Shown here one piece after another: positions 2,390 to 59,237 of a stretch of DNA of 64,000 nucleotides. Source of the DNA: Candidatus Omnitrophota bacterium (GTDB lineage: Bacteria; Omnitrophota; Omnitrophia; Omnitrophales; Aquincolibacteriaceae); assembly GCA_035368605.1 (NCBI GenBank), contig DAOSLF010000005.1:54520-118519 (forward strand), given 5' to 3'. The position numbers and the translations under genes are program-made. The notes under the pieces are model-generated. The model saw only the letters and a list, made by a program, of their open reading frames with translations, ran no database searches and was not told the DNA's origin. Numbering within the stretch: position 1 is the stretch's first letter; every line of letters begins with the position of its first letter.

Positions 2390-2875
2390 TTAAAAGGGGA
2401 TATCTTCATCCGGTTTAAGTTCATCCTGCGACACCGAAGGCCCACCCTTCCTGGAAGAGCCCGAACCTTCCGGTGCTTCAAAAATAGTGTTGTCGATGTC
2501 CATCGTCGGCACATCCGCGCTCTCGCTCTTGCCTCCCGGCTTGGAACCGAGAAACTGGATGTTGTCAGCAACCACTTCCGTTGAATACCGCTTGCTCCCG
2601 TCCGGGCCGTCCCAACTACGGGTCTGAATCCTGCCTTCCACGAAAACGGGGCGGCCTTTTTTCAGGTATTCGTTGCAGATCTCGGCCAGCCGCGCCCAGA
2701 CCACGATGCGAATGAAACTGACCTCTTCCTTCTTTTCGCCGGTCCTGGCCATATAGGTCCGCCCGCAGGCGATCGTGAAGGTGGCCACGGCCTGCCCGGA
2801 AGGAAGATACCGGAGTTCCGGGTCACGGGTAAGATTCCCGATCAGCATGACCTTGTTCAGATTTGCCGCCATCAC
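2390..2875 (-). CDS. ssb: Single-stranded DNA-binding protein
   Basis: 161 aa with an OB-fold N-terminus (NKVMLIGNLTRDPELRY), a Gly/Ser-rich linker and the acidic DEDIPF C-terminal tip. Confidence 0.9.
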   Translation of the reverse strand: MMAANLNKVMLIGNLTRDPELRYLPSGQAVATFTIACGRTYMARTGEKKEEVSFIRIVVWARLAEICNEYLKKGRPVFVEGRIQTRSWDGPDGSKRYSTEVVADNIQFLGSKPGGKSESADVPTMDIDNTIFEAPEGSGSSRKGGPSVSQDELKPDEDIPF

Positions 2876-2889
2876 ATCACCTCAGGTGT

Positions 2890-3237
2890 TCAGGTTTGGG
2901 GAGTGACCGGTTGCGCGACCGGGGCCGCCGCGACAGGCGTTTTGGCCTTCCTTTCGTCGGGGACCGTGATCATGTACTTCAGGAGGTTTTCCTGGAATTC
3001 GAGTTCCTTGTGGAAATCCTGCATCTTCGCGGGGTCCATCTCGAACTGGACCACCAACACCTTCCCGTCCTTGTGCTTCCCGACGGGATGACCGATGGTT
3101 TTCTTTCCAAGATCGGTCTTCTGGAGGACCCTCCCCTGGAACTTTTCAATCCACCTGGCCACTTCCGCAGAGCCGTCCTTATGGGTCTCCCCGGTGGCTT
3201 CCGTCGGAAAAATAAACAAACCCTCATACTTTCTCAT
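2890..3237 (-). CDS. rpsF: 30S ribosomal protein S6
   Basis: 115 aa beginning MRKYEGLFIF...; it heads the S6-SSB-S18-L9 cluster. A GGAGG SD lies 7 nt upstream. Confidence 0.9.
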   Translation of the reverse strand: MRKYEGLFIFPTEATGETHKDGSAEVARWIEKFQGRVLQKTDLGKKTIGHPVGKHKDGKVLVVQFEMDPAKMQDFHKELEFQENLLKYMITVPDERKAKTPVAAAPVAQPVTPQT

Positions 3238-3378
3238 TCTTGACTCCTCTTATTCCTGTAGACGATCGGTTACCTTAGCTAAGGCGTTCCGTGCGGCAAA
3301 TCAGCTGGGAACCTCCAGAAGGCCCTGAAAGGAGTGACAATGTAACATAAAGCCCTCTGTTCCGCAACAAAAGATAAC

Positions 3379-3981
3379 CTACAATTTTGTCGAATTGACC
3401 CAGTGGGCTGCCTTCGCGAACGGCTCGACGGCCCATCGCCGGCAGGCCTCGGCCCCCTGTTCGAGGAGCCCGGGAATCTCTTTTTCCTCCGCGCGACTGA
3501 ATGCGGCCAGGACATAGTTACGGAGAGGTTCGTCCGCCCCTGCGGAGCGGTTCGGGTCGTCCTCGCGCCGAACGCCGATCCCAACCCTCAATCGCGCGTA
3601 GGCGGCGCTCCGGAGAGTGTCCTCGATGGACGCGAGGCCATTATGGCCACCGGGGCTGCCGTCCCCTCTCAGACGGAACCGCCCGAACGGAAGCGCGATA
3701 TCGTCTACCACGATCAAAAGATTTTTATAGTCCCGCACCCCGAAATGCTCCGCAAGCAATTTCACCGGACCACCCGAGAGGTTCATATAACTTTCGGGAT
3801 AGGCGATCACAACGGGTTCGCAGTCCCAGGAAACTTCGGCGGCGCAGGCCCTCAGGGAAGGTTTCCTCGCGAAAGACCCGCCTTCCCGGGCAGCGATATG
3901 CTCGATCAAACGGCGTCCGATATTGTGCCGCGTTCCCGCATAGGAGGTTCCGGGGTTGCCGAGGCCGACGATAAGTTTCAT
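3379..3981 (-). CDS. pth: Peptidyl-tRNA hydrolase. The true start is the internal MKLIVGLGNPG; the listed 279-aa ORF is an Arg-rich 5' over-extension.
   Basis: MKLIVGLGNPGTSYAGTRHNIG is the canonical Pth N-terminus. An ATG was verified at 3979-3981. It sits in the glmU-prs-ctc-pth gene order. Confidence 0.9.
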   Translation of the reverse strand: MKLIVGLGNPGTSYAGTRHNIGRRLIEHIAAREGGSFARKPSLRACAAEVSWDCEPVVIAYPESYMNLSGGPVKLLAEHFGVRDYKNLLIVVDDIALPFGRFRLRGDGSPGGHNGLASIEDTLRSAAYARLRVGIGVRREDDPNRSAGADEPLRNYVLAAFSRAEEKEIPGLLEQGAEACRRWAVEPFAKAAHWVNSTKL

Positions 3982-3985
3982 AGAC

Positions 3986-4024
3986 AGGAAAAAGACCGGC
4001 GAACGCGCAAGGCGTCCGCCGGTC
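3986..4024 (-). terminator. Rho-independent terminator downstream of rplY/ctc
   Basis: On the minus strand an 8-bp GC stem (GACCGGCG...CGCCGGTC) is followed by TTTTTCC, immediately 3' of the rplY stop and 5' of the pth start. Confidence 0.55.
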
Positions 4025-4037
4025 TCCGGGACTTTCC

Positions 4038-4736
4038 TTATTTTGCCGGGGCCGCGCCGGGTTTCGCCGCGGGAGCGGCGCCTTCCTCGCCCTCCGCAGG
4101 CTTCTTGCCCTTTTCGATGACTTCCGGCTGCGTCGCGGCTTCTTCCGCCGGTTGCGCGACCTCTTCCTCGCGGGGAGGATGAACGGTCACGACGACATCG
4201 TCGGGAGACAGGAGACATTCGACGCCTTCGGCGAGCGCGAGCGCGCTGACGTGGATCGCGTCATTGATCTTCATTTCTTTCGCGTCGATCTCGATCTTCT
4301 CCGGAATCTGCGTCGGCAAACACTCGACCTCGACTTCATGGTGGACCACATCGAGCACGCCGCCTTCCTTGACGCCGGGAGCGAGGTCCGCGTGGACCAC
4401 GACGACCGGCACCTTGACCGTGATCTTCTCGGTCATCGAAATAACCATCAGATCGACGTGGTCGATCTTTTCGGTCATGGGATTGCGCTGCATGTCCTTG
4501 ATCAGGCAGATCGATTCCTTGAGCTGGACACCCTCGACCTTAAGCGAGATCATGACGTTCTCGCCCGCCTTGGTACGGATCGCCTTCAGGAACTCGCGTT
4601 CCGGAAGCTCCAGCGCGAGCGGCTTCATGCCGTGGCCGTAGACAATGGCCGGGATCATTTCGTTGCGGCGGACGCTACGCGCCTTCCGGCTGCCCTCGAC
4701 CTGACGGACGGTAACTTTCAGTTCATACGTTTGCAT
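4038..4736 (-). CDS. rplY: 50S ribosomal protein L25 / general stress protein Ctc
   Basis: 232 aa with the L25/Ctc beta-barrel domains and a Glu/Ala/Pro-rich low-complexity tail. Confidence 0.9.
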   Translation of the reverse strand: MQTYELKVTVRQVEGSRKARSVRRNEMIPAIVYGHGMKPLALELPEREFLKAIRTKAGENVMISLKVEGVQLKESICLIKDMQRNPMTEKIDHVDLMVISMTEKITVKVPVVVVHADLAPGVKEGGVLDVVHHEVEVECLPTQIPEKIEIDAKEMKINDAIHVSALALAEGVECLLSPDDVVVTVHPPREEEVAQPAEEAATQPEVIEKGKKPAEGEEGAAPAAKPGAAPAK

Positions 4737-44976: not shown

Positions 44977-47900
44977 TCAAGCCGTCGCGGCCTGAGGCGG
45001 GTAGATCGCCACTTTCCTTTGCGCGTTGGACAGGGCGGGTCCGCTCTTGAACGGACTCTTTGACACATCGCGCTCGACCTTGAGGACCCTGATGGGACCT
45101 CTCGGCTGGGAGATGTCCCTGGGCAGGATCAGCTCATTGTGGATGAGCGTCGCGCCGGCCACACCCTCAAAAGCCTGGCGGAGCATCCATCCCGCGGCGC
45201 CGGTATAGCCGTTCCAGATCATGCGCCCCGGCTCGAACGTCGTGAGGAAGTCGGCCGGCTGTTTGTTCGGCTGTCCGCCGTAGATTTCGATCTCCTCCGG
45301 CGTCACGTGAGCGAGCGGCGAGATCTTCGACCAGAGACGGAACGACGTCGCGCGGTATTCGTCCGCTTTCGCGCGATCACCGCGTTTCTCGTATTCCTCG
45401 GCGATCAGGCGCGCGGCACGGACAAGCCACTGGACACCGTGGCAGTACATGCCGTTCTCGCGAACGCCTTCGGGATACTTGCTGCTCCGTCCGAGGTACG
45501 GCTTCGTGTCCTCACGCAGGGCCGGCCATCCGAGGAGGATGACGCTGCCGCGTTCAAGAACCGAAAGGGCCGTGTTGAAGATGGTGACCCCGCGATCGAA
45601 GTTGATCCCTGTATAGACCGACCAGGCGGCCGTCAGGGCATCGATCTCCCACACCCCGCTGTCCTTCACGCCGATCTCGGTGCCATCGTCGTGAATCGCG
45701 CGAAGGTAGCGGTCACCACGCCAGGTCTTCTCCAGCGCCGTGGCCAGGTCCTTCATTTTCGCGGTGTAATGTTCCTTGCGTTTCACGCCATCCTTGCGCT
45801 CGATCGCCGGAAGCATCTCGCGCAGGATGTAATAGAGGAAGAACCCGAGCCACACGCTCTCGCCCTTCCCCCCGCTGCCGATCTCGTCGAGACCGTCGTT
45901 CCAGTCGCCGACACCCATGAGAGGAAGACCGTTCCGTCCCATGCGGTGATCCAGGACTGTGTCGATCGACCGCATGCAGTGGCGGTAGACCGTGTCGGCC
46001 CGGGTCGAACGTCCATAAAGGGCGCCCCACCCGTGCTTGTTCTTCGGGAGCGGCGCGAACGGGAACTCGGACGTCACATACGACGTCATCTCGTCCAGGA
46101 TCGTGTCATCGCCCGTGATGCGGATGTACTCGCCGACCCCCCACGCGATCCAGAGCAGGTTGTCGGAGGCGTGCGACCGGCACGAAAAGGCCGAACGGCC
46201 GTCCGTCAGCGTGAAGAACCAGTGGAACACGTCGCCCTCGATGAACTGCTGGGAGGCATGCAGGATGATTTGCTTGCGCGCGAGCGCGGGGTCCACCCAT
46301 GTGAGGTTGACCGTATCCTGCAGCTGGTCGCGGAAGCCGAACGCGCCGCTCGTCTGGTAGAAACCGCGGCGGGCCCAGATGCGTTCCGCGAGGGCCTGAT
46401 ATTTCAGCCAGTTGAGGTAACGATCGAACTCGGGCTGGTTCGTCTGAAGCGTGGTCGTGCCCATGAGCCCAAGCCACCATTTCCGGGTCTCATCAAGCGT
46501 CGTCTTGACCATCTCCATATTCTTGTACTTCTGGACCAGCTGGATCGCATGCTTCCTGTGGTCGGTCTGCCCGAGAATGATGGCGACCGTGCGCTCCCCG
46601 CGCGCCGGGACTTCCAGCGTCCCGACAAAAGCCGCGACCTGCGCATTATCGGTCATTTGCAGCGCATCCGGTTCCGCGCGCTCGACAAAATAGGGGTCCA
46701 CGGGACCCCGCCCGCTTCCAAAGAAGCAGCCGCGTTTTGTCGTGACGTTATCCGCCGGAATCGACATTGAAACGAAGGCCGACCCGGTGCGGAAGGTGTT
46801 CCTCGGATTTTCGAAGAAAAGGGCGTCCAGCGCCTTGTCGTACTTCGTAACGAGCGGGCCCGAACGTTCCGGCTGGAACGCGAGCGCCATCTGGAAATAC
46901 GGGGCGACGCGGATCTTGCGCGCCTGGTCCTCGTGGTTGCGGACCGTCAGGAGGTAAACCCCCATCGGGTCTTCCGTCGGCACGAACACCGTCAGTTCGG
47001 TCGAGAGGTTCCCCTTGGACATCCGGAAAACCGCCGTTCCGTCCACGCCGAATTCGCACTCGTTCTTCGCGGCCGTGTCGTTCAGCGGGTGATGCGTCGG
47101 CGAATACCACTCACCGCGGTCCGGCTCATACAGGTAGATCGCCTCCGACGGGATCTCACGCGTCACCGTGTCCGGCCAGTCGGGCGTCACGCGGTTCTGC
47201 TGGGAATTCCCGTTACAGGAGGTGTGAAGACCGCGATTCGTGACCATCACGGAATGCACGGGGTTCGCCATGCCGTGATCGAACGGGCGCGGCGTGTAGG
47301 GGGTCTTGACGAGCAGCCGGTCCCCGTCGTTCTTGAATTCGTAATAGGGCTGCGGGGTTCCCTCCGGAATCTCGCCATGACCGATCAAAAGCGCGTGCTT
47401 TTTCGGCTGGAACGCGGACGGGATTTTTTTCGGGTCCGGCTTCAGGTGCTTCGCGATCATCTCAAGCGCCTGTTCTTTCTTTTTCGCGTAGCCGATCATG
47501 AGTTTCACGGTCTTTTTCGCGCCGGCGGCAAGCGGCAGATGGATCAGGAAACTGCCGATCGGATCGAAAGTCGGGCAGGCCGGCGTGTCCTTCGCCTCGA
47601 GAAAATCAAGCGTCTCGACGATCCGCGGCGACCAGATGCTGCGCGCGCGGCCGATGAAATCGACGCGCCCCGTCAGGAAGCCTTCGGGGGCGATATCGGA
47701 CGCGAGGAATCCCATGGACTTCGTGCTCTTGTTCCAGGAAAGCATCGCGTTCGAGGCGTTCACGTACTGCATCTCGGGATAAAGCCGCTGGTACTGCGTG
47801 TGGAAACGGTCATGCATCCACCCGTTCAGCACCCATTCGAGGTACGGGACGACCTTGAGCTGGCGCTCGCGGTCCGTCAGGTTCTCGACGGTAATGCTCC

Positions 47901-50900
47901 AGATCTCGGCCGTGCTGTCCTGGTCGGGCAGCGTGATATCGATCGAGGTCCGGACCCCCTGGTTCGAGTTCGTGATCCGGAGCGTGTCGTCGACCTTTTC
48001 GGCCTTTGAAGGAGCGAAATAGCGTTCCGGGAAATTGCCGGCGACCGGCCACGCCCGTTCGGCGCTGTCCGGGGCCCTGCCGGTATCCACGAGATAAAGA
48101 ACGCGGCCGCAGGGATCAACAAGGTCATAAGAACGGCGGGTGACGTCGCATTCCTTGTTGATGACTTCCCCGTAGACCTCGGTGTTCTCTTTCATCGTGA
48201 TGCGGTACTCGCGATTCGCGACCGTGTAGCTTGCGATCTTCCGCCGGGCCGCGCGCCGGTGAAGTTTCCGGACGATCATGGAAACAACCGAAAAAAGAAC
48301 CACCGCGGCGGCGATCAGAAGCACGAGCTGCGGCCAGGACATCGACTGCAGCGCGGGGATCAATCCCTTGCCGCGATGCGCGTTCTGGATCTTTTCGGCC
48401 GTCCCCCAGACCTCGTCCCACTGCGCTCCGCGCGGAAGATAGAACGGGATCAGAAGCGGCGCCCACGTCGTGAACCGTTTGACGCCTTCGGGAATGTAGC
48501 GCTGGGCGGCCGCGGGACCGATGAACCGCGCAACCTTTTCATCCAGCTTGTCCATCCCGAGAAAGCTCAGGTTCACGAGCGTCGCGACGCGAAGCCCCAT
48601 GTGGTCCATCCAGATCAGGATCCGGAAGAAATCAAAGGCCAGAATCCAGACGAAGATCTTGAGGCTCCATTCCTGGAACGCAGGCGCGGACATCGTGAAG
48701 CTGTTCCACGTGGCGATACAGGTGCGGATCAAACCGTCCTGGTTATACCACGTCGCGACCGGCATCATGCGCAGGAACGTGTAGATGATCGGCGACATCC
48801 AGAGACCCCAACGAAGGACGTAGATCATCAGTTCGGTCAACTGGGCGAGACCCGCCTTCGAGAAGAAGAACTTGATCGGGGTCTTGTCCTTGTCGAAGAA
48901 CGCCTGCATGAACACCTTGTTGATAGCGAAAAGCCACGTGGCAACCGACCACTTGATGACGCCGTCGAGGGATTCCGTAAAAAGCAGTTTGACGCCGCCC
49001 CGGCAGAACCCGAGGTCCACCTGCCCCCATTTGCTGATCAGAACCGGCTGCACGTAACGGCCTTCGCTGCTGAAATAAGGGTACATCGTCGGGGTCATCC
49101 GGCCGGTCGCGTCGAAGGAAGGATAGGAGGCGATTTGCGCAGTCGTAAAATGCGACGTGATGTAAAGGTTGAATTTGTAGATGACGACCGCGACCTGCTG
49201 GGCGTCCATATAGAAGGCCAGCATGCCGCCGAGGAAACCGCCAAGGAGCGAATCGATAAAATAAAGTCTCCAGGACTGAACCTTCCCGCAACCTTTCATC
49301 ATGTAAACAAGGTCGCGGAAAAAACTGATGCCGCCGGATGCGAGAAACCCGATCATGAGCCCGAAGAGAATACGATCCGAGGTCGACCGATGGATGTAAC
49401 CCTGCACGATCATCGCGGCGATCCCGAAACCGGCCACCGCGCCGCGCGCGTAAAGCACGCGGTTCCGGTAGCTGTAGGCGAGCCGGTCAAAGAACGGCAT
49501 GCTGCCGTCAAAGCTTTCGATAATGGTCTTCGCGAACGGGAACACGATCGCCCCGAGCAGGATGCCGATCACGTACGGGAATGAGGCCATGACCTTCTGC
49601 GCCGCCGGCATCATGAAGATCGTCGCGAGCACGTAGAGGATCGTCATCAGGATGCCGCTGTACGCCATGCCCTTTTTCATACCGGTCGTAACGTTCCTGA
49701 AAATGGTGTCCTCGGAAGGGGCGATATGTTTGCCGCCATCCAGGAGGATACCGGTCACGAGGTAGACCTCTCCCCAAAGACCAGCGAACGAAAGGACGGT
49801 GGTCACCACGGAGACGAGGGCCCGTAGCGCCATCGGCCAGGTGCCGATCACAGCCGCGGAGCCGAGGTTCGCGATCGCCGGTGCGAGCACGACCGCGAGC
49901 GAGACCAGCAGGAGAAGGCCGTGCGCCCTGGGCGTTTTCAGGAACCGGCCTTTAGTCGCGTAGCTCATACCGTTCGAGAGGAGTTCATTGAAAACAAAGA
50001 CAACCACCAGCCGGCCGAGCCCGTCAAGGACCGCGGGCCACGCCGCGAGAAGACCGAAGGTCAGGGAGTACGCCATCGTCTTGATCAGGGTGGCATTTTC
50101 GAGGAGCAACAGCAGACCGACCAGATAGGGCGTACCGACGATCAGGGCCGCAGGAACCGGCGCCGCATGCTTGCCGGAAGAGCCCATCGCATTGGCGTTG
50201 AAGATCTGATAAACAAGGAAAGCGACCGCCGCCGTGAGCTTGTTGACCATCAGCAGGTTGCTCCACACCGTCGGGATTTGCAGGAGTTCCAGGCGGCTCG
50301 AGGAAAAAGCGAGCAGTGCCGCAATGAAGAAATCCTGAAAGGCTTCGGCCGGCGTCAGATGCCTGCCGATGTGCTTCACCTTGAGGCATTCCGCAATCAG
50401 CGCGCCCGCGAGACCGACAAGCAGGAACCAGAAACCCGCTTCGGCGGGACCTTTTAGTCCGAGGATGTAAATCCAGAGCGCGACACCCGCGATCGCGGCC
50501 ACGATCACTCCGTAGAAAAGATCCGTCAGCAGACGGGAGATCAAAGACACCCTGGCGGCTTCCGGAAGCGCCGCGACGGCCGGTTTCTTTACCGTCCGCT
50601 TGCCCGCCAGAAACGCGAGCAGGGCGAGGAAAAGACCTCCGAGGACCGCGGCCCCGATCTTGACGGGAAACAGATACCGTTGCATGAACGTGATCCTGGA
50701 GAAATCGGCGCTGAGGAACAGTGTGCCGCGCGCGGGAGCATCCCCTTTCGGCGTGATCACAAAAACCACTTCGGCGAGACTGCCAATATCTGTCCATCGC
50801 ACCGGTTTGCGGACGATGTTCCAGCCCGGCTTCAGGCCAAGCGGGACCGTCTTCGTTCCGACGCTTCCCTTGATCTCCGCCCGCACCGTGATCTTGTTCA

Positions 50901-51843
50901 GCTGATCGGCCTCGAGGACCTGATAGCTGAGGGTAACCGTATTGGTCTGCTCGAGTTCGGAAGCCGGCGGGAACTTTTTGGTCCAGACACGCATTTCGGA
51001 ACCCGGGACAAGGGTGTAGCCGGTATCAAGGATATCCTTCCGGATTTCTCCGTCGAAAGTCAGCGTGGCGGAACCCTTCGCGCCTCCGGTGGTCGTTGTC
51101 CCGTATTTTTTCATCTCCTGGACGAACGCGACCGCGGCAGAGCCCACTTTCCTGGCCGTTTCTTTCATTGCGGCAGACACTTTCGCCGCGGCCTGGCTCG
51201 CGGCGGCCGCCATCCTTTGCGCTTCAACCCTCGCCTTTGTCGCGGGAGCGGCCGCGGCTGTCCTTACAAGGTCCGCGGCAATATAAAGGGTTCCCCTGGA
51301 AGGGGCCTCGCCCGCCGGCGCGACCACAAAGGCGATTCCGCTCAGCGTCCCGATCTTCTCCCGATCGATCGTTCCCTGGACATGATTGATCCCCTGTTTA
51401 AGACTGACGGGCAGGCTCTGAACGCCCTTCGTGCCGAGGATCTCCATTTTCACCGTAACCGCCCGGGATTGCGCGGCTTCCGGAACGCTGATCACGGCCT
51501 TGACCGATGTCACCGGGGACACCGCCACTTCCGGGGGAAAATCTTTCGCCCAAACGCTGATGGAAGAACCGGTGGCAAGCGTGTAGGTGAAATCCCACAC
51601 ATCCTTCCGCAGGGATTCCTCATAAGTCGAGGTGATCGTTCCTTTCGCGTCTCCGGACGGGGTCACGCCCTTCGCCTTCGCGTCCTGGAGCCGGAAAGAC
51701 GCGGCGGGCTCATCGGCGGCCGGAACCGGCGACGGACCGCAAATTAAAAACGCCGCCAAGGCCGAGAAGAACACGGCCGCGAGGCGGCGTCGGGAAAGCT
51801 TCGGGAACGGAAAGGATCCGCGGGAGGGCGAGGCTTGATTCAT
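44977..51843 (-). CDS. Giant membrane protein (about 2288 aa from MNQASPSRG...). It has a signal peptide, 2 x ~130-aa periplasmic repeats, an ~850-aa polytopic membrane module of unknown family, and a ~1000-aa GH94-like glycoside-phosphorylase / cyclic-glucan-synthase-like C-terminal region.
   Basis: C-terminal motifs FGFRDQLQDT, GVGDWNDGLD and TGAAGWM fit the GH94 (alpha/alpha)6-barrel phosphorylase family. The first 75 codons of the listed ORF (44977..52068) fall in an AT-rich non-coding-looking stretch. An ATG at 51841-51843 begins a signal-like peptide RRRLAAVFFSALAAFLICGPSPVPAA. Confidence 0.8.
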   Translation of the reverse strand: MNQASPSRGSFPFPKLSRRRLAAVFFSALAAFLICGPSPVPAADEPAASFRLQDAKAKGVTPSGDAKGTITSTYEESLRKDVWDFTYTLATGSSISVWAKDFPPEVAVSPVTSVKAVISVPEAAQSRAVTVKMEILGTKGVQSLPVSLKQGINHVQGTIDREKIGTLSGIAFVVAPAGEAPSRGTLYIAADLVRTAAAAPATKARVEAQRMAAAASQAAAKVSAAMKETARKVGSAAVAFVQEMKKYGTTTTGGAKGSATLTFDGEIRKDILDTGYTLVPGSEMRVWTKKFPPASELEQTNTVTLSYQVLEADQLNKITVRAEIKGSVGTKTVPLGLKPGWNIVRKPVRWTDIGSLAEVVFVITPKGDAPARGTLFLSADFSRITFMQRYLFPVKIGAAVLGGLFLALLAFLAGKRTVKKPAVAALPEAARVSLISRLLTDLFYGVIVAAIAGVALWIYILGLKGPAEAGFWFLLVGLAGALIAECLKVKHIGRHLTPAEAFQDFFIAALLAFSSSRLELLQIPTVWSNLLMVNKLTAAVAFLVYQIFNANAMGSSGKHAAPVPAALIVGTPYLVGLLLLLENATLIKTMAYSLTFGLLAAWPAVLDGLGRLVVVFVFNELLSNGMSYATKGRFLKTPRAHGLLLLVSLAVVLAPAIANLGSAAVIGTWPMALRALVSVVTTVLSFAGLWGEVYLVTGILLDGGKHIAPSEDTIFRNVTTGMKKGMAYSGILMTILYVLATIFMMPAAQKVMASFPYVIGILLGAIVFPFAKTIIESFDGSMPFFDRLAYSYRNRVLYARGAVAGFGIAAMIVQGYIHRSTSDRILFGLMIGFLASGGISFFRDLVYMMKGCGKVQSWRLYFIDSLLGGFLGGMLAFYMDAQQVAVVIYKFNLYITSHFTTAQIASYPSFDATGRMTPTMYPYFSSEGRYVQPVLISKWGQVDLGFCRGGVKLLFTESLDGVIKWSVATWLFAINKVFMQAFFDKDKTPIKFFFSKAGLAQLTELMIYVLRWGLWMSPIIYTFLRMMPVATWYNQDGLIRTCIATWNSFTMSAPAFQEWSLKIFVWILAFDFFRILIWMDHMGLRVATLVNLSFLGMDKLDEKVARFIGPAAAQRYIPEGVKRFTTWAPLLIPFYLPRGAQWDEVWGTAEKIQNAHRGKGLIPALQSMSWPQLVLLIAAAVVLFSVVSMIVRKLHRRAARRKIASYTVANREYRITMKENTEVYGEVINKECDVTRRSYDLVDPCGRVLYLVDTGRAPDSAERAWPVAGNFPERYFAPSKAEKVDDTLRITNSNQGVRTSIDITLPDQDSTAEIWSITVENLTDRERQLKVVPYLEWVLNGWMHDRFHTQYQRLYPEMQYVNASNAMLSWNKSTKSMGFLASDIAPEGFLTGRVDFIGRARSIWSPRIVETLDFLEAKDTPACPTFDPIGSFLIHLPLAAGAKKTVKLMIGYAKKKEQALEMIAKHLKPDPKKIPSAFQPKKHALLIGHGEIPEGTPQPYYEFKNDGDRLLVKTPYTPRPFDHGMANPVHSVMVTNRGLHTSCNGNSQQNRVTPDWPDTVTREIPSEAIYLYEPDRGEWYSPTHHPLNDTAAKNECEFGVDGTAVFRMSKGNLSTELTVFVPTEDPMGVYLLTVRNHEDQARKIRVAPYFQMALAFQPERSGPLVTKYDKALDALFFENPRNTFRTGSAFVSMSIPADNVTTKRGCFFGSGRGPVDPYFVERAEPDALQMTDNAQVAAFVGTLEVPARGERTVAIILGQTDHRKHAIQLVQKYKNMEMVKTTLDETRKWWLGLMGTTTLQTNQPEFDRYLNWLKYQALAERIWARRGFYQTSGAFGFRDQLQDTVNLTWVDPALARKQIILHASQQFIEGDVFHWFFTLTDGRSAFSCRSHASDNLLWIAWGVGEYIRITGDDTILDEMTSYVTSEFPFAPLPKNKHGWGALYGRSTRADTVYRHCMRSIDTVLDHRMGRNGLPLMGVGDWNDGLDEIGSGGKGESVWLGFFLYYILREMLPAIERKDGVKRKEHYTAKMKDLATALEKTWRGDRYLRAIHDDGTEIGVKDSGVWEIDALTAAWSVYTGINFDRGVTIFNTALSVLERGSVILLGWPALREDTKPYLGRSSKYPEGVRENGMYCHGVQWLVRAARLIAEEYEKRGDRAKADEYRATSFRLWSKISPLAHVTPEEIEIYGGQPNKQPADFLTTFEPGRMIWNGYTGAAGWMLRQAFEGVAGATLIHNELILPRDISQPRGPIRVLKVERDVSKSPFKSGPALSNAQRKVAIYPPQAATA

Positions 51844-52116
51844 CTTTTTTTGACCTTTCTTTAATCGGTGAAGTAACTTTCGAAAAGATTCCCCTTGAAC
51901 ATGGACTTTCAGGAAAATGGACTTGCGAAAATATGACACCTGATCGAAGAATAAAGACGGCGTATTATACCCGGAAACCCGATTTTCGGAAGGTTTTGTT
52001 TTTATCAAAGGAATGTTATATGATGCCCCGCATGAACCCCGTTGGAGACAGGACCTGCTTTCCGGCAAGTCCTTGTCCGTCCCTTAACGTCGGCTTTCAG
52101 ACAAACCTGTCTTCTT

Positions 52117-53458: not shown

Positions 53459-54772
53459 CTATGGTCCCGTGACGACCTCCGGAATGATCCCCTTCTGCGC
53501 GTAGATGGGGCGGATCTTTGCCTTGACAAGGGGAAGCTTCCTCAAAAAAACAACGGCGCCCGCGACGCAGCAGGCGCCGCTGAAAAAGATCGTAAGGGAA
53601 GCGCCGATCCTGCCCGCGAGCCCTCCGGCCAGGAGACTCCCGAAAGGCGCCATCCCCATGAACGACATCGTGTAAAGGCTCATGACCCTTCCCCGCTTGT
53701 CTTCTTCCACAATGGTCTGAAGGATAGTGTTACAGGAAGCCGTGTGGACGATCATCCCGAAACCCGAGAACCAGCTGATAAGAAGCGAAAGGGAGAAACT
53801 CCTGGACAAGGAGAGCGCGATCATGCTGATCCCGAAAAGACCCGCCATCCGCGCGAGAACCTTTCCCAGCCCGACCACGCTCCTGCGCGCGGCCAGAAAA
53901 AGCGCCCCGGCCAGCGCGCCCGCCCCGGACATGGCCATCAGGAAACCGAGGGTATGCGGCCCGCCTCGGAAAACATCTTTCGCGAACACCGGCATCAGAA
54001 CCGGATAGGCAACGCCCATCAGACTCACAACCGACAGGATAAAAAGAATCCAGCGAATCGGCACGGAACGGAACCCGTAGGCAAGACCTTCCCTCAGTTC
54101 GTGCCAGATCCTTTGCTCCGGAATGAACAGCCTCCCGGCCGCGACCTTCATGGCACAAAGCGACAGCACCACGGGAATATAACTGACCGCGTTCAGGAAA
54201 AAGCAGACCCCTTCCCCCGCCCAAGCGATCAGGAGGCCGGCCGCCGAAGGCCCGATAAGCCGCGCCGCGTTTATCATCGACGAGTTCAGGGCGATCGCAT
54301 TACCAAGATCTTCGCGCTCCTCGACCATTTCGATCGTGAAGGATTGACGGACGGGAATATCGAAAGAATTGATGATGCCCAGAAAAGCGCTCAGCGCGAC
54401 CACATGCCACACCTGTATCCTTTGAGAGAGCACAAGAAAGGCCAGCAGGGACGCCTGCAAAAGGGCCGCGACCTGCGTCACGATCAGAAGGGATCGCCGC
54501 TCATGCCGGTCCGCCAGCACGCCGGCGACCGGCGAGATCAGGAAGGTCGGAATCTGCCCGACAAAGCCCACAACGCCGAGCCAGATCGGTGAACTTGTCA
54601 TGCGGTAGACCAGCCAGCCCACGGCCACCTGCTGCATCCACGTCCCGACCAGCGAGATTCCCTGCCCGAAGAAAAAGAGCCGATAATTGCGGTGCCGCAA
54701 TGCGCGGAACATGGATCGCAAGTCGATTCCGCGGGAAGGTCGGGGGTCCGGAACGCTCATGGCCGGACTCAT
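53459..54772 (-). CDS. MFS transporter (EntS/macrolide-efflux-like)
   Basis: 437 aa with 12 predicted TM segments and the MFS motif region LADRHERRSLL. Its start overlaps the macB stop (ATGA). Confidence 0.85.
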   Translation of the reverse strand: MSPAMSVPDPRPSRGIDLRSMFRALRHRNYRLFFFGQGISLVGTWMQQVAVGWLVYRMTSSPIWLGVVGFVGQIPTFLISPVAGVLADRHERRSLLIVTQVAALLQASLLAFLVLSQRIQVWHVVALSAFLGIINSFDIPVRQSFTIEMVEEREDLGNAIALNSSMINAARLIGPSAAGLLIAWAGEGVCFFLNAVSYIPVVLSLCAMKVAAGRLFIPEQRIWHELREGLAYGFRSVPIRWILFILSVVSLMGVAYPVLMPVFAKDVFRGGPHTLGFLMAMSGAGALAGALFLAARRSVVGLGKVLARMAGLFGISMIALSLSRSFSLSLLISWFSGFGMIVHTASCNTILQTIVEEDKRGRVMSLYTMSFMGMAPFGSLLAGGLAGRIGASLTIFFSGACCVAGAVVFLRKLPLVKAKIRPIYAQKGIIPEVVTGP

Positions 54773-56736
54773 TCGTACCGCAGGGAACGGATGGGATCAA
54801 GGGCAGCGGCCTGTTTCGCCGGCCAAAGGCCGAACAGGATTCCCACACCCGCGGAAAAAAGAAACGCGAGGCAGAGGGAACCGAAGGTAATGATCATCTT
54901 CCACTTCGCGAAGGTTGCGATCAGCCAGGAGACCACACCGGCCAGGGCGATGCCGGTCAGCCCCCCCAGAAAAGTAATCATAACCGCTTCCACGAGAAAC
55001 TGTACCAGGATATCGCGGGACGTGGCGCCAAGCGCCTTCCGAAGACCGATCTCACGCGTCCGCTCCTTCACCGAAACAAGCATGATATTCATGATCCCGA
55101 TCCCGCCGACCACGAGCGAAATCGTCGCAACGCTCCCGAGAAGGATCCCGAAGGTCCGCGTCGTACTGGAGAGCGCGGCCTGAATATCCGCAAAGTTCCG
55201 GATATTGAAACTATCGTAACGGTCGGGCGTCAGGTGATGTCGCCGGATAATCAGGGCGCTGATCTCCTCCTGCGCGGCGGGCATCGCGCCAAGCTCCGTG
55301 ATCTCCGCGTCAACCTAATCCAGATAGTCCTTCCCCATCAGCCGTTTCATGGCGGTCATGAGCGGGATCACAACCATGTCATCCTGGTCGTGAAAGGCGC
55401 TGGCTCCCCGAGAGGGCAGGATCCCGAGAATCTGAAAGTTCACACGATTGATCTTGATCGTTTTTCCGATCGGGTCTTCTGTTCCGAAAAGATTTTTCTG
55501 AACGGTCTGGCCGACCAACGCCACCCGCAAGCGTCTCTGATTTTCGTCCGAAGTGAAAAAACGTCCCGCAACGGGTTCCTGGTTCCTCATTGGGGCGTAT
55601 TCGGGAACCGCGCCGATCACCCGCGTGGTCCAGTTCTTGTCTTCAAACACAAGCTGTCCCTGACCGGTCACCTGGGGAGACACCCTCCTGACCGATGGCA
55701 CTGCGGCGATCGCCCGGGCATCATCAAGCGTCAGGCGCGTTGCCGCCCCCGCCTCAACGCTGGCGCCGCGAACCTTGACCGACCCGGGACGGATCGTCAA
55801 AAGATTGGAGCCCATTCTGGCAAGATCTTCCTTGACCGATTCCGCGGCGCCCCGTCCCAGGGCCAGCATCGTAATCACACAGGCCACCCCGATCAGAACG
55901 CCGAGGATGGAAAGGAACGACCGCAATTTGTTGTTGAGGACCACGCGCCGCGCCAGCCGGAAATGCTCGAGAAATTCCCCGTAATTGTATCTTTTTTTTC
56001 TCAAGCTTCCTCCCCGATCCAGGTCCGCAATCCCTGTCACGGACTGCTCTTTCGCGGGGATCCGCCGTTCATCGCTGACGATCTTCCCGTCATGCATCCG
56101 GACGACACGCTCCGCCTCTTTCCCCACTTCCTCGCCGTGCGTGACAAGCACAATGGTCATGCCTTGCCGGTGAAGCTCCTTGAAGATTCCGAGGATCTCC
56201 TGTCCGGCCCTGGAATCAAGGTTCCCCGTCGGCTCGTCGGCAAGAATCATCAGCGGTTTTGTCACAAGGGCGCGGGCGATCGCGACTCGCTGCTGCTGGC
56301 CTCCCGAAAGTTCGTTCGGGCGATGGCCGGTACGGTTCGAAAGACCGACCCTGGCAAGCATCTCCCGGGACCGGTCGAGGTCCCCCGCGCGGTCATCGGA
56401 ATAAAGCAGCGGGAGACAGACGTTTTCAAGGGCGGTGGAGCGCGCCATCAGGTTAAATTGCTGGAACACAAAACCGACCACCCGGTTTCTGAGGAAGGCA
56501 TACGCTTCGTCCGAAAGGCGGGAGGTGTCCCGGCCCATCAGACGAACCGTTCCGCTGTCGGGCCGGTCCAGGAACCCCAAAAGATGCATCAGCGTGGACT
56601 TGCCGGAACCGGAAGGCCCCATGATCGCGATGAATTCGCCGGCATGGATCGTCAGAGAAACATCCTGAAGCGCGCGAACCTCGACTTCGCCGATCTTGTA
56701 GGTTTTGGAAATGTTTTCGACTTCGAGCAGTTTCAT
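54769..56736 (-). pseudogene. macB: MacB-type ABC transporter (ATPase fused to FtsX-like permease) interrupted by a single in-frame TAG at 55315-55317. Listed as two ORFs, 55315..56736 and 54769..55284, both in the same frame.
   Basis: ORF1 has Walker A GPSGSGKST, signature [17 protein letters not shown]1 and most of the periplasmic domain. Reading through the TAG gives ...DYLD*VDAEITELGAMPAAQEEI... continuing in frame into the FtsX C-terminal TM bundle. Combined length is about 655 aa, the normal MacB size. Confidence 0.75.
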
Positions 56737-57743
56737 GAGGATTTCGTGGCGCCACTTTTTCTGGCGGCGCGCGGCGAGCCGAAAAGATTCGAGGATCTTT
56801 CCTTTTCCTTCTTCCTGACCACCGCGATCTCCGCGCCTTCTTTCAGGCCGTCCGTGATCTCGGTCCTGACGCCGTCGGTTTCCCCCGTCTTGACGGCCAC
56901 CGGTTCCAGTTTGCCTCCGAAAACTTTTTTGTAAACCGCAAAGACCGCACCGGAGGGGTTCGGGATGTTCTTCGGCCAGGCCACGACCGCCTCCGAGGGG
57001 ACCGTAAGAACATTTTTGCAGTCCTTAACGATAAAGGTAACGTTCGCGGTCATCCCGCTCCGAAAAGATTCGGACAACGCTTCCGGGGCCACATCGATCG
57101 CATAGACATTGACGTTGTTTTCGAGCGTGCTTTCGAACGCGATATGGTCGACCGTACCGGGGACAAGCTCGTCCCGGTAGGCGTCCAGCGTGATCTCCAC
57201 CGGCTGAGCGAGCCGGATGAACGCGAGATCGGTCTCGTCCACCAGGGCCTGAACGATCAGGCGGTCGGAAAGGACCACCACCGGATCCGCCGTCGTGACC
57301 GTTTGACCGGGTTCCACCGAGCGAACAATGATCGTCCCGTCGAGCGGGGCAAGGAGCGGCGCGGGCAGATAGGCTTCTTCCCACCGTTTGACAACTTCGT
57401 CGCCCCTGGAACGCGCGGCATCGAGCAGAGCCGCCCTCTCGACCGAGCTCATGCGGGCCAGCACCTGCCCTTTCTTCACTTCGTCCCCTTCGCGCACCAG
57501 CACTTCCTCGATCCGTCCCGCGATCGGCGCCTTGACCTCGACGCGATTATAGGGCTGGACCGTCCCTGTCGAACTGACCGTCACGGACAGGTCTCCGCGA
57601 ACCACCTGGGCGGTCCGGACAATCTGGAGATCCCCCTTCGCCGCCCCGCAGGAGGCAAAAATCCTCATGAGGAGGAACACTCCGATCGCGACCAGGGTGA
57701 ACCTGGCCGGGCGCGAAAGTTTATGGGGTAACGATTTCATCAT
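56733..57743 (-). CDS. macA: Efflux periplasmic adaptor (membrane fusion protein, MacA-like); lipoprotein
   Basis: Start at MMKSLPHKLSRPARFTLVAIGVFLLMRIFASC (lipobox FASC) with a GGAGG SD. It has HlyD-family biotinyl-lipoyl and beta-barrel segments. It overlaps macB (ATGA) and the upstream OMP gene by about 20 nt. Confidence 0.85.
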   Translation of the reverse strand: MMKSLPHKLSRPARFTLVAIGVFLLMRIFASCGAAKGDLQIVRTAQVVRGDLSVTVSSTGTVQPYNRVEVKAPIAGRIEEVLVREGDEVKKGQVLARMSSVERAALLDAARSRGDEVVKRWEEAYLPAPLLAPLDGTIIVRSVEPGQTVTTADPVVVLSDRLIVQALVDETDLAFIRLAQPVEITLDAYRDELVPGTVDHIAFESTLENNVNVYAIDVAPEALSESFRSGMTANVTFIVKDCKNVLTVPSEAVVAWPKNIPNPSGAVFAVYKKVFGGKLEPVAVKTGETDGVRTEITDGLKEGAEIAVVRKKEKERSSNLFGSPRAARKSGATKSS

Positions 57744-59061
57744 AAGCATCCTCCAGGGTGGCGCCCTGTGTTTTTTCCCAATTGGCCTGCTGAGTAAAAA
57801 CATCGGCCAGGCTTTCGACATAATCTTTTTCGGCGTTCGCATTCTCCTGTTCCGCGGTATCAAAATCCGTGAAATTGACGAGCCCGCTCGTGTATTCCGC
57901 CCGGATGATCTCGGCGCGCTTCTGCGCGGCCTCAAGGAATTTCTTTTTCACGCTGACCGCGTCAACCGCGTCCGCGTACGGTACCCAGGCGGCCGACAGG
58001 GCGGCGATGGCCTCGTCACGGGCACTTTTCGCGGCGCTTTCGGCGGCATCGTAATCCGCTTTCGCCTTCCGGATCGCCGCGACGTTCTTCCCGCCCTCAA
58101 AGAACGGGACCGACACACGAACGCCAAGGGAGCTCTGGTCTTTCAAGCGGGACGCGCGATCGCCTGTATAACCGTACTCATAGGTCCCGTCGACCCGGGG
58201 CCACACGGCCGATTGGGCCGAAACGACATTCGCCCTGGACGCTTCGGCCGTTTTAAGGAGCCTCATCACCGCGGGCGTCTTTTCGGCCAACGCGACATAA
58301 TCCGCCTCCGACAGCGTGACGCCGCCAAGCATTTTCTCCAGACCATCCGTGATCCGGAGCGGAAGCAAAAAATCCCCGCCGCTTTCGCGCGCAAGACGGA
58401 GCGATTCTTTTTCAAGCAGACGCTCCGTCTGCTTGACGTCAAAGCCGGCCTGATCGGCGATCGCCTCCGCCCGGAGGGCCGATCCCACGTTCTCGCGGCC
58501 GGCCTCGTAGCGGAGACGAACCATTTCCGCGTTTTGCTTGCGTCTCTCGAGGATCTGCCGGTTCGTCTTCAAAAGCCTTTCCAGACGGATCACGCTTATA
58601 TAGGAAGACCGCAGGCGGTAACGGACGTCCGCGCTGGTCTCGTCGTAGGCCATACGGGCCGCTTCAAGTTCCTTGCGGGCCTTGATCCAGTCTCCCGTCG
58701 TCCCGAACCCGTTAAAAAGGTTCTGACTCGCGTTGATATCGAGACTGAGCGTGTCCGCATGGGCCCCGGGCATGGTCTTTCGCGAAACATTCTTTTGCAT
58801 GCTCCCTTCCACCGAGGGAAGAAAATCTCCTAGCGCGATGTCGCGATTACGGGCGGCCGATGTCACGCGGGAGCGGGCTCCCCGGAGGTCGGGATTCCGG
58901 CTAAGGGTCTGCCGGACGAGACCCTCCCAGGTCAATGTTTCGGGCTCGGCGCGACGCTCGATCTTCGCCTGGGGCAGGCTGACGGTCCGGCAGCCGCCCA
59001 GAAAAAAAACGGCGGTTAACGCCGTTATCGCGAACTTCCATCTCGCCGTGTTCTGCCGCAT
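57721..59061 (-). CDS. TolC/NodT-family outer-membrane efflux lipoprotein
   Basis: Start at MRQNTARWKFAITALTAVFFLGGC (lipobox LGGC), followed by two OEP repeats. It is the first gene of the OMP-MFP-MacB-MFS operon. Confidence 0.85.
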   Translation of the reverse strand: MRQNTARWKFAITALTAVFFLGGCRTVSLPQAKIERRAEPETLTWEGLVRQTLSRNPDLRGARSRVTSAARNRDIALGDFLPSVEGSMQKNVSRKTMPGAHADTLSLDINASQNLFNGFGTTGDWIKARKELEAARMAYDETSADVRYRLRSSYISVIRLERLLKTNRQILERRKQNAEMVRLRYEAGRENVGSALRAEAIADQAGFDVKQTERLLEKESLRLARESGGDFLLPLRITDGLEKMLGGVTLSEADYVALAEKTPAVMRLLKTAEASRANVVSAQSAVWPRVDGTYEYGYTGDRASRLKDQSSLGVRVSVPFFEGGKNVAAIRKAKADYDAAESAAKSARDEAIAALSAAWVPYADAVDAVSVKKKFLEAAQKRAEIIRAEYTSGLVNFTDFDTAEQENANAEKDYVESLADVFTQQANWEKTQGATLEDAYDEIVTP

Positions 59062-59237
59062 GCTTCGTCTTGTCCTTATGTTGGTGCCTTCAGGTTTGAC
59101 CGCTAAAACGCCGACAAAGTTCCGCTTGTCTGAAATTGTGGTATCGTTCGGGGAGAGGCCGGAAGGCGCTGTTCTCATCGCGGGGGACGCGATCCGGGTC
59201 CGGGACCTTTTGTCCGTGAAATTCCGGAAGGTGTATC

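Follow-up and report, generated by a model that had tools for sequence, protein, structure and literature searches.

A probable recent nonsense mutation in macB of a Candidatus Omnitrophota strain lineage

In the 64,000-nucleotide stretch of DNA analysed here (the window), a gene for a MacB-type transporter is interrupted by a single in-frame TAG. Is this stop an error, a codon that is read through, the border between two working pieces, or a mutation that ended the function of the gene? Translation of positions 54769..56736 on the minus strand gave 656 codons with one internal stop and a terminal TGA, that is, a single 655-codon frame with one internal TAG. This TAG is codon 474 (55317..55315, minus strand; DNA context GAT TAG GTT; protein context ...MGKDYLD*VDAEITELGAMPAAQ...). 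A preliminary description had joined the two same-frame ORFs of the ORF listing, 55315..56736 (473 aa) and 54769..55284 (171 aa), into one MacB frame of about 655 aa with the TAG at 55315-55317 as its sole break, and the translation agrees. The N-terminal fragment (55318..56736, minus strand; codons 1-473) was delimited by translation, Pfam, structure alignment and the called product P0125. It comprises the nucleotide-binding domain, whose motifs are present in the translation (Walker A GPSGSGKST, signature LSGGQQQR, Walker B ILADEPT), together with TM1, the first Porter half and the Sabre subdomain. The C-terminal remnant (54769..55314, minus strand; codons 475-655 plus TGA) is in frame and intact, as seen by translation and its Pfam FtsX match. 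This part of the frame encodes the second beta-alpha-beta motif of Porter together with TM2-TM4 (the FtsX domain), and its amino acid sequence is 100% identical to that of the full-length allele, P0128.

The identity of the protein was examined with Pfam and with solved structures. ABC_tran matched residues 23-170 (E 3.8e-34), MacB_PCD matched residues 273-466 (E 3.9e-45) and FtsX matched the C-terminal part of the frame (E 2.4e-20). The joined protein with Q474 matched 5LIL over query residues 1-654 (E 7.7e-130), 5GKO (E 2.3e-123) and 5NIK (E 5.5e-122). Q474 aligns with residue 467 of the MacB of A. actinomycetemcomitans, in which the Sabre subdomain spans residues 347-465 and the second Porter motif residues 466-503 (PMC5985334). 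By this alignment, the stop is inside the periplasmic domain, as had been described, but well past its middle: about four fifths of the domain precede it, and it marks the point where Sabre gives way to the second half of Porter. The conceptual full-length protein shares its domain order (NBD, TM1, Porter/Sabre, TM2-TM4) with MacB of the MacAB-TolC pump, a Type VII ABC transporter. In contrast to that protein, the window ORF is cut at codon 474, so the canonical protein cannot be encoded. The one-polypeptide layout, with Porter and Sabre between TM1 and TM2 followed by FtsX-type TM2-TM4, is present in the CAG allele P0128 of the same species and absent from the window allele, in which the TAG splits the domains.

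The operon type is also shared with MacAB-TolC in that a MacA-type adaptor and a TolC-like outer-membrane factor are encoded, and it differs in that an MFS_3 gene is appended downstream. The gene for the outer-membrane factor is intact (57721..59178, minus strand) and matched Pfam OEP in two stretches (E 2.8e-47). The macA-type periplasmic adaptor gene (56733..57743, minus strand; 336 aa as called in public assemblies) matched HlyD_3, HlyD_D23 and Biotin_lipoyl_2; its open frame reaches 57935, and its stop overlaps the macB start (ATGA). The MFS_3 transporter gene lies directly downstream of macB (53459..54772, minus strand; Pfam MFS_3, E 2.2e-60). The start of its longest ORF overlaps the macB TGA, again as ATGA, and gene callers also use starts at 54760 or 54712. 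The Pfam domains and the ATGA overlaps agree with the earlier account of a TolC-like, macA, macB and MFS cassette that is otherwise complete and coupled. An antisense ORF of 781 aa opposite macB (54589..56934, plus strand) had no Pfam match and was taken as a GC-rich shadow ORF. A DUF3313 gene appeared to be split in contig L006, where the choice of start by the gene caller differs and the frame is open.

A sequencing or assembly error had been offered as one explanation, with the T at 55317 as a consensus artefact and CAG in the true genome. The source of the window is a metagenome-assembled genome (MAG), and coverage is low in two of the TAG contigs, L002 (2.7x) and L032 (1.9x, with many indels). 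However, the same TAG recurs in at least 11 contigs from separate records, with lengths of 1.6-202 kb and several assembler styles of naming (NODE_, k141_, Logan, JGI, NCBI). The DNA itself shows TAG in GCA_029553765.1, ERZ795058, ERZ27257448, Logan SRR4236665, JGI 3300009715 and ERZ2648042, on contigs that include L002, L027-L031 and L032. The exact 473-aa and 171-aa products were also called in JGI 3300010344, 3300025682 and 3300009720 and in ERZ27257401. The allele counts were taken from contigs encoding called products (the 473-aa product, P0125, on 8 contigs and the 171-aa product on 10). TAG is read directly in six records and deduced in at least five more. Three of the TAG records (ERZ795058, ERZ27257448 and JGI 3300009715) share a further private SNP, a synonymous GCG>GCA change at codon 640 (54817, minus strand), which was seen in the variable-site table and the mismatch list. 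This SNP is present only in TAG-carrying records and marks a sub-haplotype inside the TAG lineage. Since random error would not hit one base repeatedly, error was rejected as an explanation, and the chance that it applies is negligible.

The TAG allele accounts for about 11 of the approximately 25 contigs recovered for the species and sits on the longest of them, which suggests that it belongs to abundant strains. The only extra downstream mutation in the TAG lineage is synonymous, which fits continued constraint, but one site proves nothing. A paper search on the sample and assembly accessions returned no matches, and the 'ADurb.Bin' naming, which may point to an anaerobic-digester origin, was not used as evidence.

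Over 13.4 kb, the window matches a contig of the Candidatus Omnitrophota MAG GCA_029553765.1 with 100% identity. In two other contigs, L004 and L005, 55317 is the single base that departs from the window. The stop is therefore a CAG>TAG transition (C>T at 55317 on the coding strand), and the protein P0128 equals the window MacB translation except for Q474. A third contig with CAG, L003, has 3 differing bases in 9,051, and L006-L015 are 99.2-99.8% identical to the window; all of L003-L015 carry CAG at codon 474, and macB is unbroken in no fewer than 13 contigs of the species. The samples with CAG include SRR29782968, SRR18053991, SRR17648133, SRR11809874 and JGI 3300010346, 3300009666 and 3300036958. 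At this codon, relatives that are 79-80% identical encode Q or E. Across 124 homologues, the column contains Q (72), T (17), S (13) and E (11), and the break occurs in none of them. The split macB is confined to one lineage that is approximately 99.97-100% identical. The preliminary description had proposed a comparison with orthologous macB in relatives, and this returned a sense codon in the sister strains and in all full-length homologues listed. Its suggestion of a very recent nonsense pseudogenisation is borne out, as otherwise identical strains carry CAG (Gln) at codon 474. Within the species, macB varies at 13 synonymous sites, 3 nonsynonymous sites and 1 nonsense site, and the gene was under purifying selection until the nonsense mutation. 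The C at 55317 belongs to a GATC site (GATCAG>GATTAG), and it could conceivably have been lost by deamination after methylation.

The TAG in macB is very probably a genuine and very young nonsense allele of one strain lineage that segregates beside CAG. A C>T transition changed Gln474 (CAG) to TAG in one Candidatus Omnitrophota strain lineage, and translation would then stop after residue 473. The product would keep the ATPase domain, TM1, the first Porter half and the Sabre subdomain. The parts lost would be the second beta-alpha-beta motif of Porter, the stalk helix TM2 and, with the coupling helices, TM3-TM4. As half of the Porter subdomain and TM2-TM4 would be lost, the MacAB-OMF pump is most likely inactivated in the TAG lineage, which would place macB at the first step of pseudogenisation. 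The downstream MFS gene may be affected by weaker translational coupling or polarity. Any full-length protein made by near-cognate Gln misreading of UAG would probably be present in trace amounts at most.

Another possible explanation is programmed readthrough or recoding, in which TAG is decoded as an amino acid (Gln, pyrrolysine or another) and full-length MacB is made in functional amounts. The frame downstream of the TAG is fully intact and the ancestral residue is Gln, as this explanation would have it. The amino acid that UAG most often receives is glutamine, carried by near-cognate tRNA-Gln, and a leak would therefore restore wild-type MacB. A distant MacB, on contig L033, also has TAG at the homologous column, but it has two TAGs and came from a length-biased choice. 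The TAG in the window is not conserved; it is a derived allele of a near-clonal lineage. In addition, six or more conserved genes of the window have TAG as the stop at their natural end: GatB, GatA, the RND permease, CoaX, IspE and the K+/H+ antiporter all stop at TAG within a few residues of their family-profile ends. This includes gatB and the RND gene, for which TAG had already been named as a genuine stop. Ten of the 51 ORFs in a crude ORF set of the window end in TAG, and of the conserved genes looked at across the 64 kb, macB alone was noticed to be interrupted by TAG. On these natural termini and the stop usage, genome-wide recoding, which had earlier been judged unlikely, was rejected.

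The surroundings of the stop also argue against readthrough. The codon context had been proposed as a place to look for readthrough signals, and the fold of the 121 nt that surround the TAG was no better than that of shuffles (z = +0.6), with no RNA structure after the stop. Within the 64-kb window, the sole tRNA is tRNA-Gln(UUG), and neither a tRNA(CUA) nor pyl genes were found there. To our knowledge, MacB is not among the Pyl (pyrrolysine) protein families. Pyrrolysine decoding and UAG-to-Gln reassignment resemble this case in that an in-frame UAG stands where relatives have Gln. In contrast to those systems, UAG terminates other genes here, and the UAG of macB is derived and strain-specific. 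Programmed readthrough is considered extremely unlikely; its product would be recognizable by a predicted junction-spanning tryptic peptide, DYLDQVDAEITELGAMPAAQEEISALIIR or a variant.

The intact remnant also raises the idea of a functional two-piece MacB, in which re-initiation yields a 171-aa protein that assembles with the 473-aa protein and the pump is retained. The first in-frame start after the stop is the ATG of Met485 (55282..55284, minus strand), which is 30 nt past the stop, has GGAG 9 nt upstream and is the start of the 171-aa ORF as annotated by gene callers. It is a candidate re-initiation site, and from the sequence re-initiation there is possible. The synonymous nature of the sole post-stop SNP and the frequency of the allele in nature are also consistent with a working pair. 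On the other hand, such a pair would lose residues 474-484, which correspond in the alignment to the beginning of the second beta-alpha-beta motif of Porter. Met485 is a family-conserved internal Met (Met in 103 of the 124 homologues) and not a newly evolved start. The lineage is also too young: with 0-1 extra SNP, constraint is not measurable. The C-terminal fragment would need to be inserted in the membrane with a periplasmic N-terminus and without TM1. No relative has a stable split, and the 119 listed matches, bar one partial, are 650-680 aa. A two-piece pump is very unlikely.

The MacB family does tolerate more than one polypeptide, as seen in the naturally split transporters Spr0694-0695 of S. 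pneumoniae (PDB 5XU1), LolCDE and FtsEX. Chains A and M of 5XU1 matched the MacB frame separately, one over the NBD (residues 2-228) and the other over the permease (residues 258-655). These splits fall between the NBD and TM1, whereas the window macB is split within the periplasmic domain, between Sabre and the second Porter motif, a division kept by no relative. The preliminary description had also considered that relatives might have the same split as two stably separate genes; the split was found only in the nearly identical lineage. The search for splits used the C-terminal 181 aa as the query and returned mostly partial proteins at contig edges. Three candidates were rejected. P0218 on L034 is cut off by the contig edge and has Gly at the column. 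P0130 on L032 is from the same species and has the same TAG on the indel-ridden 1.9x contig. P0190 on L033 is from a different organism, has two in-frame TAGs and was read as an independent pseudogene.

The macB TAG is probably an ordinary young loss-of-function allele. Like young nonsense pseudogenes in bacterial populations, it arose by a one-step transition, has an intact allele in otherwise identical strains, is polymorphic among samples and leaves the rest of the gene and the operon undecayed. Nothing about it is unusual in kind, and only its apparent high frequency across metagenome assemblies stands out. Such a frequency is unexpected for a deleterious knockout unless the pump is dispensable in the habitats or the allele hitch-hiked. 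For annotation, the two ORFs at 54769..56736 should be merged into a single entry, a macB pseudogene or nonsense allele, instead of being given as separate genes, and the TAG is no evidence for an alternative genetic code in Omnitrophota. The allele raises no new mechanistic question. It does provide a clean natural case, in a bacterium that is uncultivated, of a polymorphism between strains with probable loss of function, with alleles one base apart that could be used as a strain marker or as a start for asking if MacAB pumps are dispensable in these habitats.

An alternative account of the high frequency is that the nonsense allele, rather than decaying neutrally, is kept in many communities because it is advantageous to have the pump off or down, maybe as a leaky knock-down in which Gln misreading of UAG gives back low amounts of exactly the wild-type MacB, with the CAG of Gln474 as a recurrent target, as the TAG in L033 could indicate. 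This is unlikely, although less so than readthrough or a two-piece pump. From its sequence, the macB of L033 looks like a decaying pseudogene, and the stop column that it shares with the window is largely a matter of ascertainment. Picking 171-aa products forces the stop into the approximately 17-20 codons before the conserved Met485, and in the window sequence no codon of that stretch other than the CAG of Gln474 becomes a stop by a transition.

The macB frame runs on the reverse strand from 56736 to 54769 and, on translation, was found to contain 656 codons with one internal stop and a TGA at the end. The internal stop is codon 474 (TAG at 55317..55315, reverse strand, in the context GAT TAG GTT), and it is flanked by the residues ...AMKRLMGKDYLD-stop-VDAEITELGAMPAAQEEI... 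The preliminary description assigned two listed ORFs on the reverse strand, of 473 aa (55315..56736) and 171 aa (54769..55284), to a single macB frame broken only by this TAG, and the translation agrees. Pfam matched the N-terminal part to ABC_tran (E 3.8e-34) and MacB_PCD (E 3.9e-45) and the C-terminal part to FtsX (E 2.4e-20). With Gln in place of the stop, residues 1-654 of the joined protein align to the solved MacB 5LIL (E 7.7e-130), and the protein also aligns to the solved structures 5GKO and 5NIK. The intact allele of this locus belongs to the MacAB-OMF tripartite efflux family, whereas the allele in the window departs from the single uninterrupted NBD-permease polypeptide through one nonsense mutation.

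ORF positions, sequence and Pfam matches also gave the neighbours previously described, which are a TolC-like OEP gene (57721..59178), an HlyD/MacA-type adaptor gene and an MFS_3 gene (53459..54772, reverse strand). These genes had been called translationally coupled. The adaptor TGA does overlap the macB ATG (ATGA, 56736..56733), but the macB TGA overlaps the MFS_3 start (ATGA, 54772..54769) only with the longest-ORF start. Depending on the assembly's gene call, MFS_3 begins at 54772, 54760 or 54712, yielding 437, 433 or 417 aa.

A protein search with the joined MacB retrieved a group of 655-aa proteins that are essentially identical and are annotated as Candidatus Omnitrophota MacB/ABC permease; all have Gln at position 474. 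One protein, P0128, matches the conceptual translation of the window at every residue but 474. At the DNA level, contig JAKPKJ010000061.1 of the MAG GCA_029553765.1 matches the window at 100% identity for 13,422 bp. In two other contigs, L004 (GCA_029563985.1) and L005 (JGI 3300010346), the sole difference from the window is a C in place of its T at 55317, and L003 (Logan SRR29782968) has three mismatches in 9,051 bases, 55317 among them. Haplotypes of the same species that are more distant from the window (L006-L015, 99.2-99.8% identity) all carry CAG at codon 474. In relatives at 79-80% identity this position is Q or E, and the column in 124 homologues with a length of 600 aa or more reads Q72, T17, S13, E11, R4, A3, M2 and N2. 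The CAG in near-identical strains and divergent haplotypes, together with the Q-dominated column, shows that the stop is a derived CAG>TAG transition, which arose on a haplotype whose intact form still exists. The mutated cytosine lies inside a GATC site that was lost by the mutation (GATCAG to GATTAG; 55314..55320, reverse strand). It is pure conjecture that the C>T change may have come from deamination, if the organism methylates the cytosine of this site.

A sequencing or assembly error had been offered as one explanation of the stop. The exact 473-aa product (P0125) was called on eight contigs and the exact 171-aa downstream product on 10. Records with the split products are NCBI GCA_029553765.1 (176 kb contig), JGI 3300010344 (111 kb), 3300025682 (74 kb), 3300009720 (75 kb) and 3300009715 (1.6 kb), ENA ERZ27257401 (202 kb), ERZ27257448 (1.6 kb) and ERZ795058 (3.5 kb), and Logan SRR4236665 (13.6 kb). 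The TAG was seen directly in the DNA of five of these nine records, and a sixth direct observation came from L032 (ENA ERZ2648042 NODE_6645), an indel-ridden contig of the same species with coverage of 1.9. The unlike lengths and naming styles of the TAG contigs point to different assemblers. Some of these records may re-assemble the same reads, and the number of independent samples is therefore below 11 but clearly more than one. A synonymous SNP at codon 640 (54817 G>A) is common to ERZ795058, ERZ27257448 and JGI 3300009715 and is absent from every CAG contig. The recurrence of the TAG across records and this SNP in three of them rule out a random consensus error. L032 itself is a low-coverage, error-rich assembly: its alignment to the window opens 71 gaps, and many of its genes are broken, including a Na+/H+ exchanger and a macB in three pieces. 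Its additional breaks should not be taken for biology.

Programmed readthrough or suppression of the TAG was another possible explanation. The most decisive point against it is that a programmed signal would be conserved, while the TAG at codon 474 is a strain-level allele found neither in the sister strains nor in any listed homologue. In addition, the 121 nt around the TAG fold no better than shuffles (z = +0.6). TAG closes conserved genes elsewhere in the window, as had been stated for gatB and the RND gene: GatB ends at profile position 479/481 (residue 497/498) and the RND permease at 1008/1009 (residue 1067/1070), and the TAGs of GatA, CoaX, IspE and a K+/H+ antiporter coincide with the profile ends of their families or lie within a few residues of them. 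In a crude set of non-overlapping ORFs from the window, the stop is TGA 21 times, TAA 20 times and TAG 10 times. No further TAG-interrupted gene was noticed in a non-systematic look at conserved genes in the 64 kb, and the window contains a single tRNA, tRNA-Gln(UUG). Pyrrolysine or a reassigned code failed the tests that were run, since TAG stands at natural gene ends and the codon-474 TAG is not conserved. Near-cognate misreading of UAG commonly inserts Gln, so any trace readthrough product would be wild-type MacB; this is a curiosity and does not count as evidence of function.

The C-terminal 181 aa were used to search for relatives that carry the same split as stable, separate genes. Mainly contig-edge partial proteins were found, and none of the three 170/171-aa products examined was such a case. 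P0130, on L032, belongs to the species of the window and has its TAG. P0218, on L034, is cut off by the contig edge and has Gly at the codon-474 column. P0190, on L033 (ENA ERZ27294411 k141_1109678, 2567-4516), comes from a different organism with 65.6% GC and a MacB about 60% identical. Its macB has two in-frame TAGs, GKDYLD-stop-IYVEV, exactly at the column homologous to codon 474, and HGVAL-stop-AGAVT, and with two stops it is probably an independent decaying pseudogene. Of the other L033 genes, six stop at TGA, one at TAA and one at TAG, a sample too small to fix the genetic code of that organism, and the case serves as no more than a lead. The shared column is largely ascertainment, because picking 171-aa products confines the stop to the stretch from the preceding in-frame start to Met485. 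In the window's copy, Gln474 CAG is the only codon of that stretch made a stop by a transition. Among the matches listed, all 119 but one partial are 650-680 aa, and none of them represents a relative keeping a two-piece MacB. Natural splits in the MacB superfamily (5XU1, LolCDE and FtsEX) fall between the NBD and TM1, partly as judged from our alignment, in contrast to the break inside the periplasmic domain seen here.

Q474 aligns with position 487 in the 5LIL chain, equivalent to native residue 467 of A. actinomycetemcomitans MacB once the 20-residue chain offset is subtracted. The Sabre subdomain spans residues 347-465, the Porter subdomain consists of two beta-alpha-beta motifs (306-346 and 466-503), and both stalk helices connect directly to Porter (PMC5985334, a review of MacB). 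The 473-aa product therefore ends exactly at the point of return from Sabre to the second Porter motif. It is without that motif, the TM2 stalk helix, TM3-TM4 and the coupling helices, and we infer that it could not support mechanotransmission and that a pump with the TAG allele should be inactive. The first in-frame start past the stop is the ATG of Met485, 30 nt downstream, with GGAG 9 nt upstream of it; Met occupies this position in 103 of the 124 homologues. Re-initiation here is possible and would give a 171-aa fragment without residues 474-484. The premature stop should, in addition, make translational coupling to the MFS gene weaker, and polarity on that gene is possible.

Within the species, the fetched contigs hold 13 synonymous, three nonsynonymous (K186R, L256F and A597V) and one nonsense variable site in macB, and the protein P0001 adds A488V. 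From this pattern, purifying selection evidently acted on macB. The nonsense change is all that separates the TAG lineage from its intact sister haplotype, and no more than one additional SNP has accumulated in it across the available regions; the macB remnant and the macA, OMF and MFS genes remain intact. Together these features bear the signature of a very recent event. Recent nonsense pseudogenisation, the explanation listed first at the outset, is supported by CAG in otherwise identical strains and by the recurrent TAG. The split macB is an ordinary event of a kind already known, and the case for it here is well documented. The TAG allele is nevertheless frequent among the recovered contigs, including the longest, which would fit a dispensable pump, hitch-hiking in an abundant clone, or positive selection for loss.

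Two features of the surrounding sequence were also recorded. A 781-aa ORF (54589..56934, forward strand) lies antisense to the entire macB and exceeds each macB fragment in length. Pfam gave no match for it, and it resembles the shadow ORF of a gene rich in GC; a longest-ORF caller used naively would choose it over the broken macB. Farther along, a very large gene (44977..52068, reverse strand; a 2,363-aa ORF, for which public assemblies give 2,288 aa) carries GH94 glycoside-hydrolase/phosphorylase domains (GH94_b-supersand and Glyco_hydro_94) and is adjoined by a divergent GT4 glycosyltransferase gene, which stands between it and the macAB cassette.
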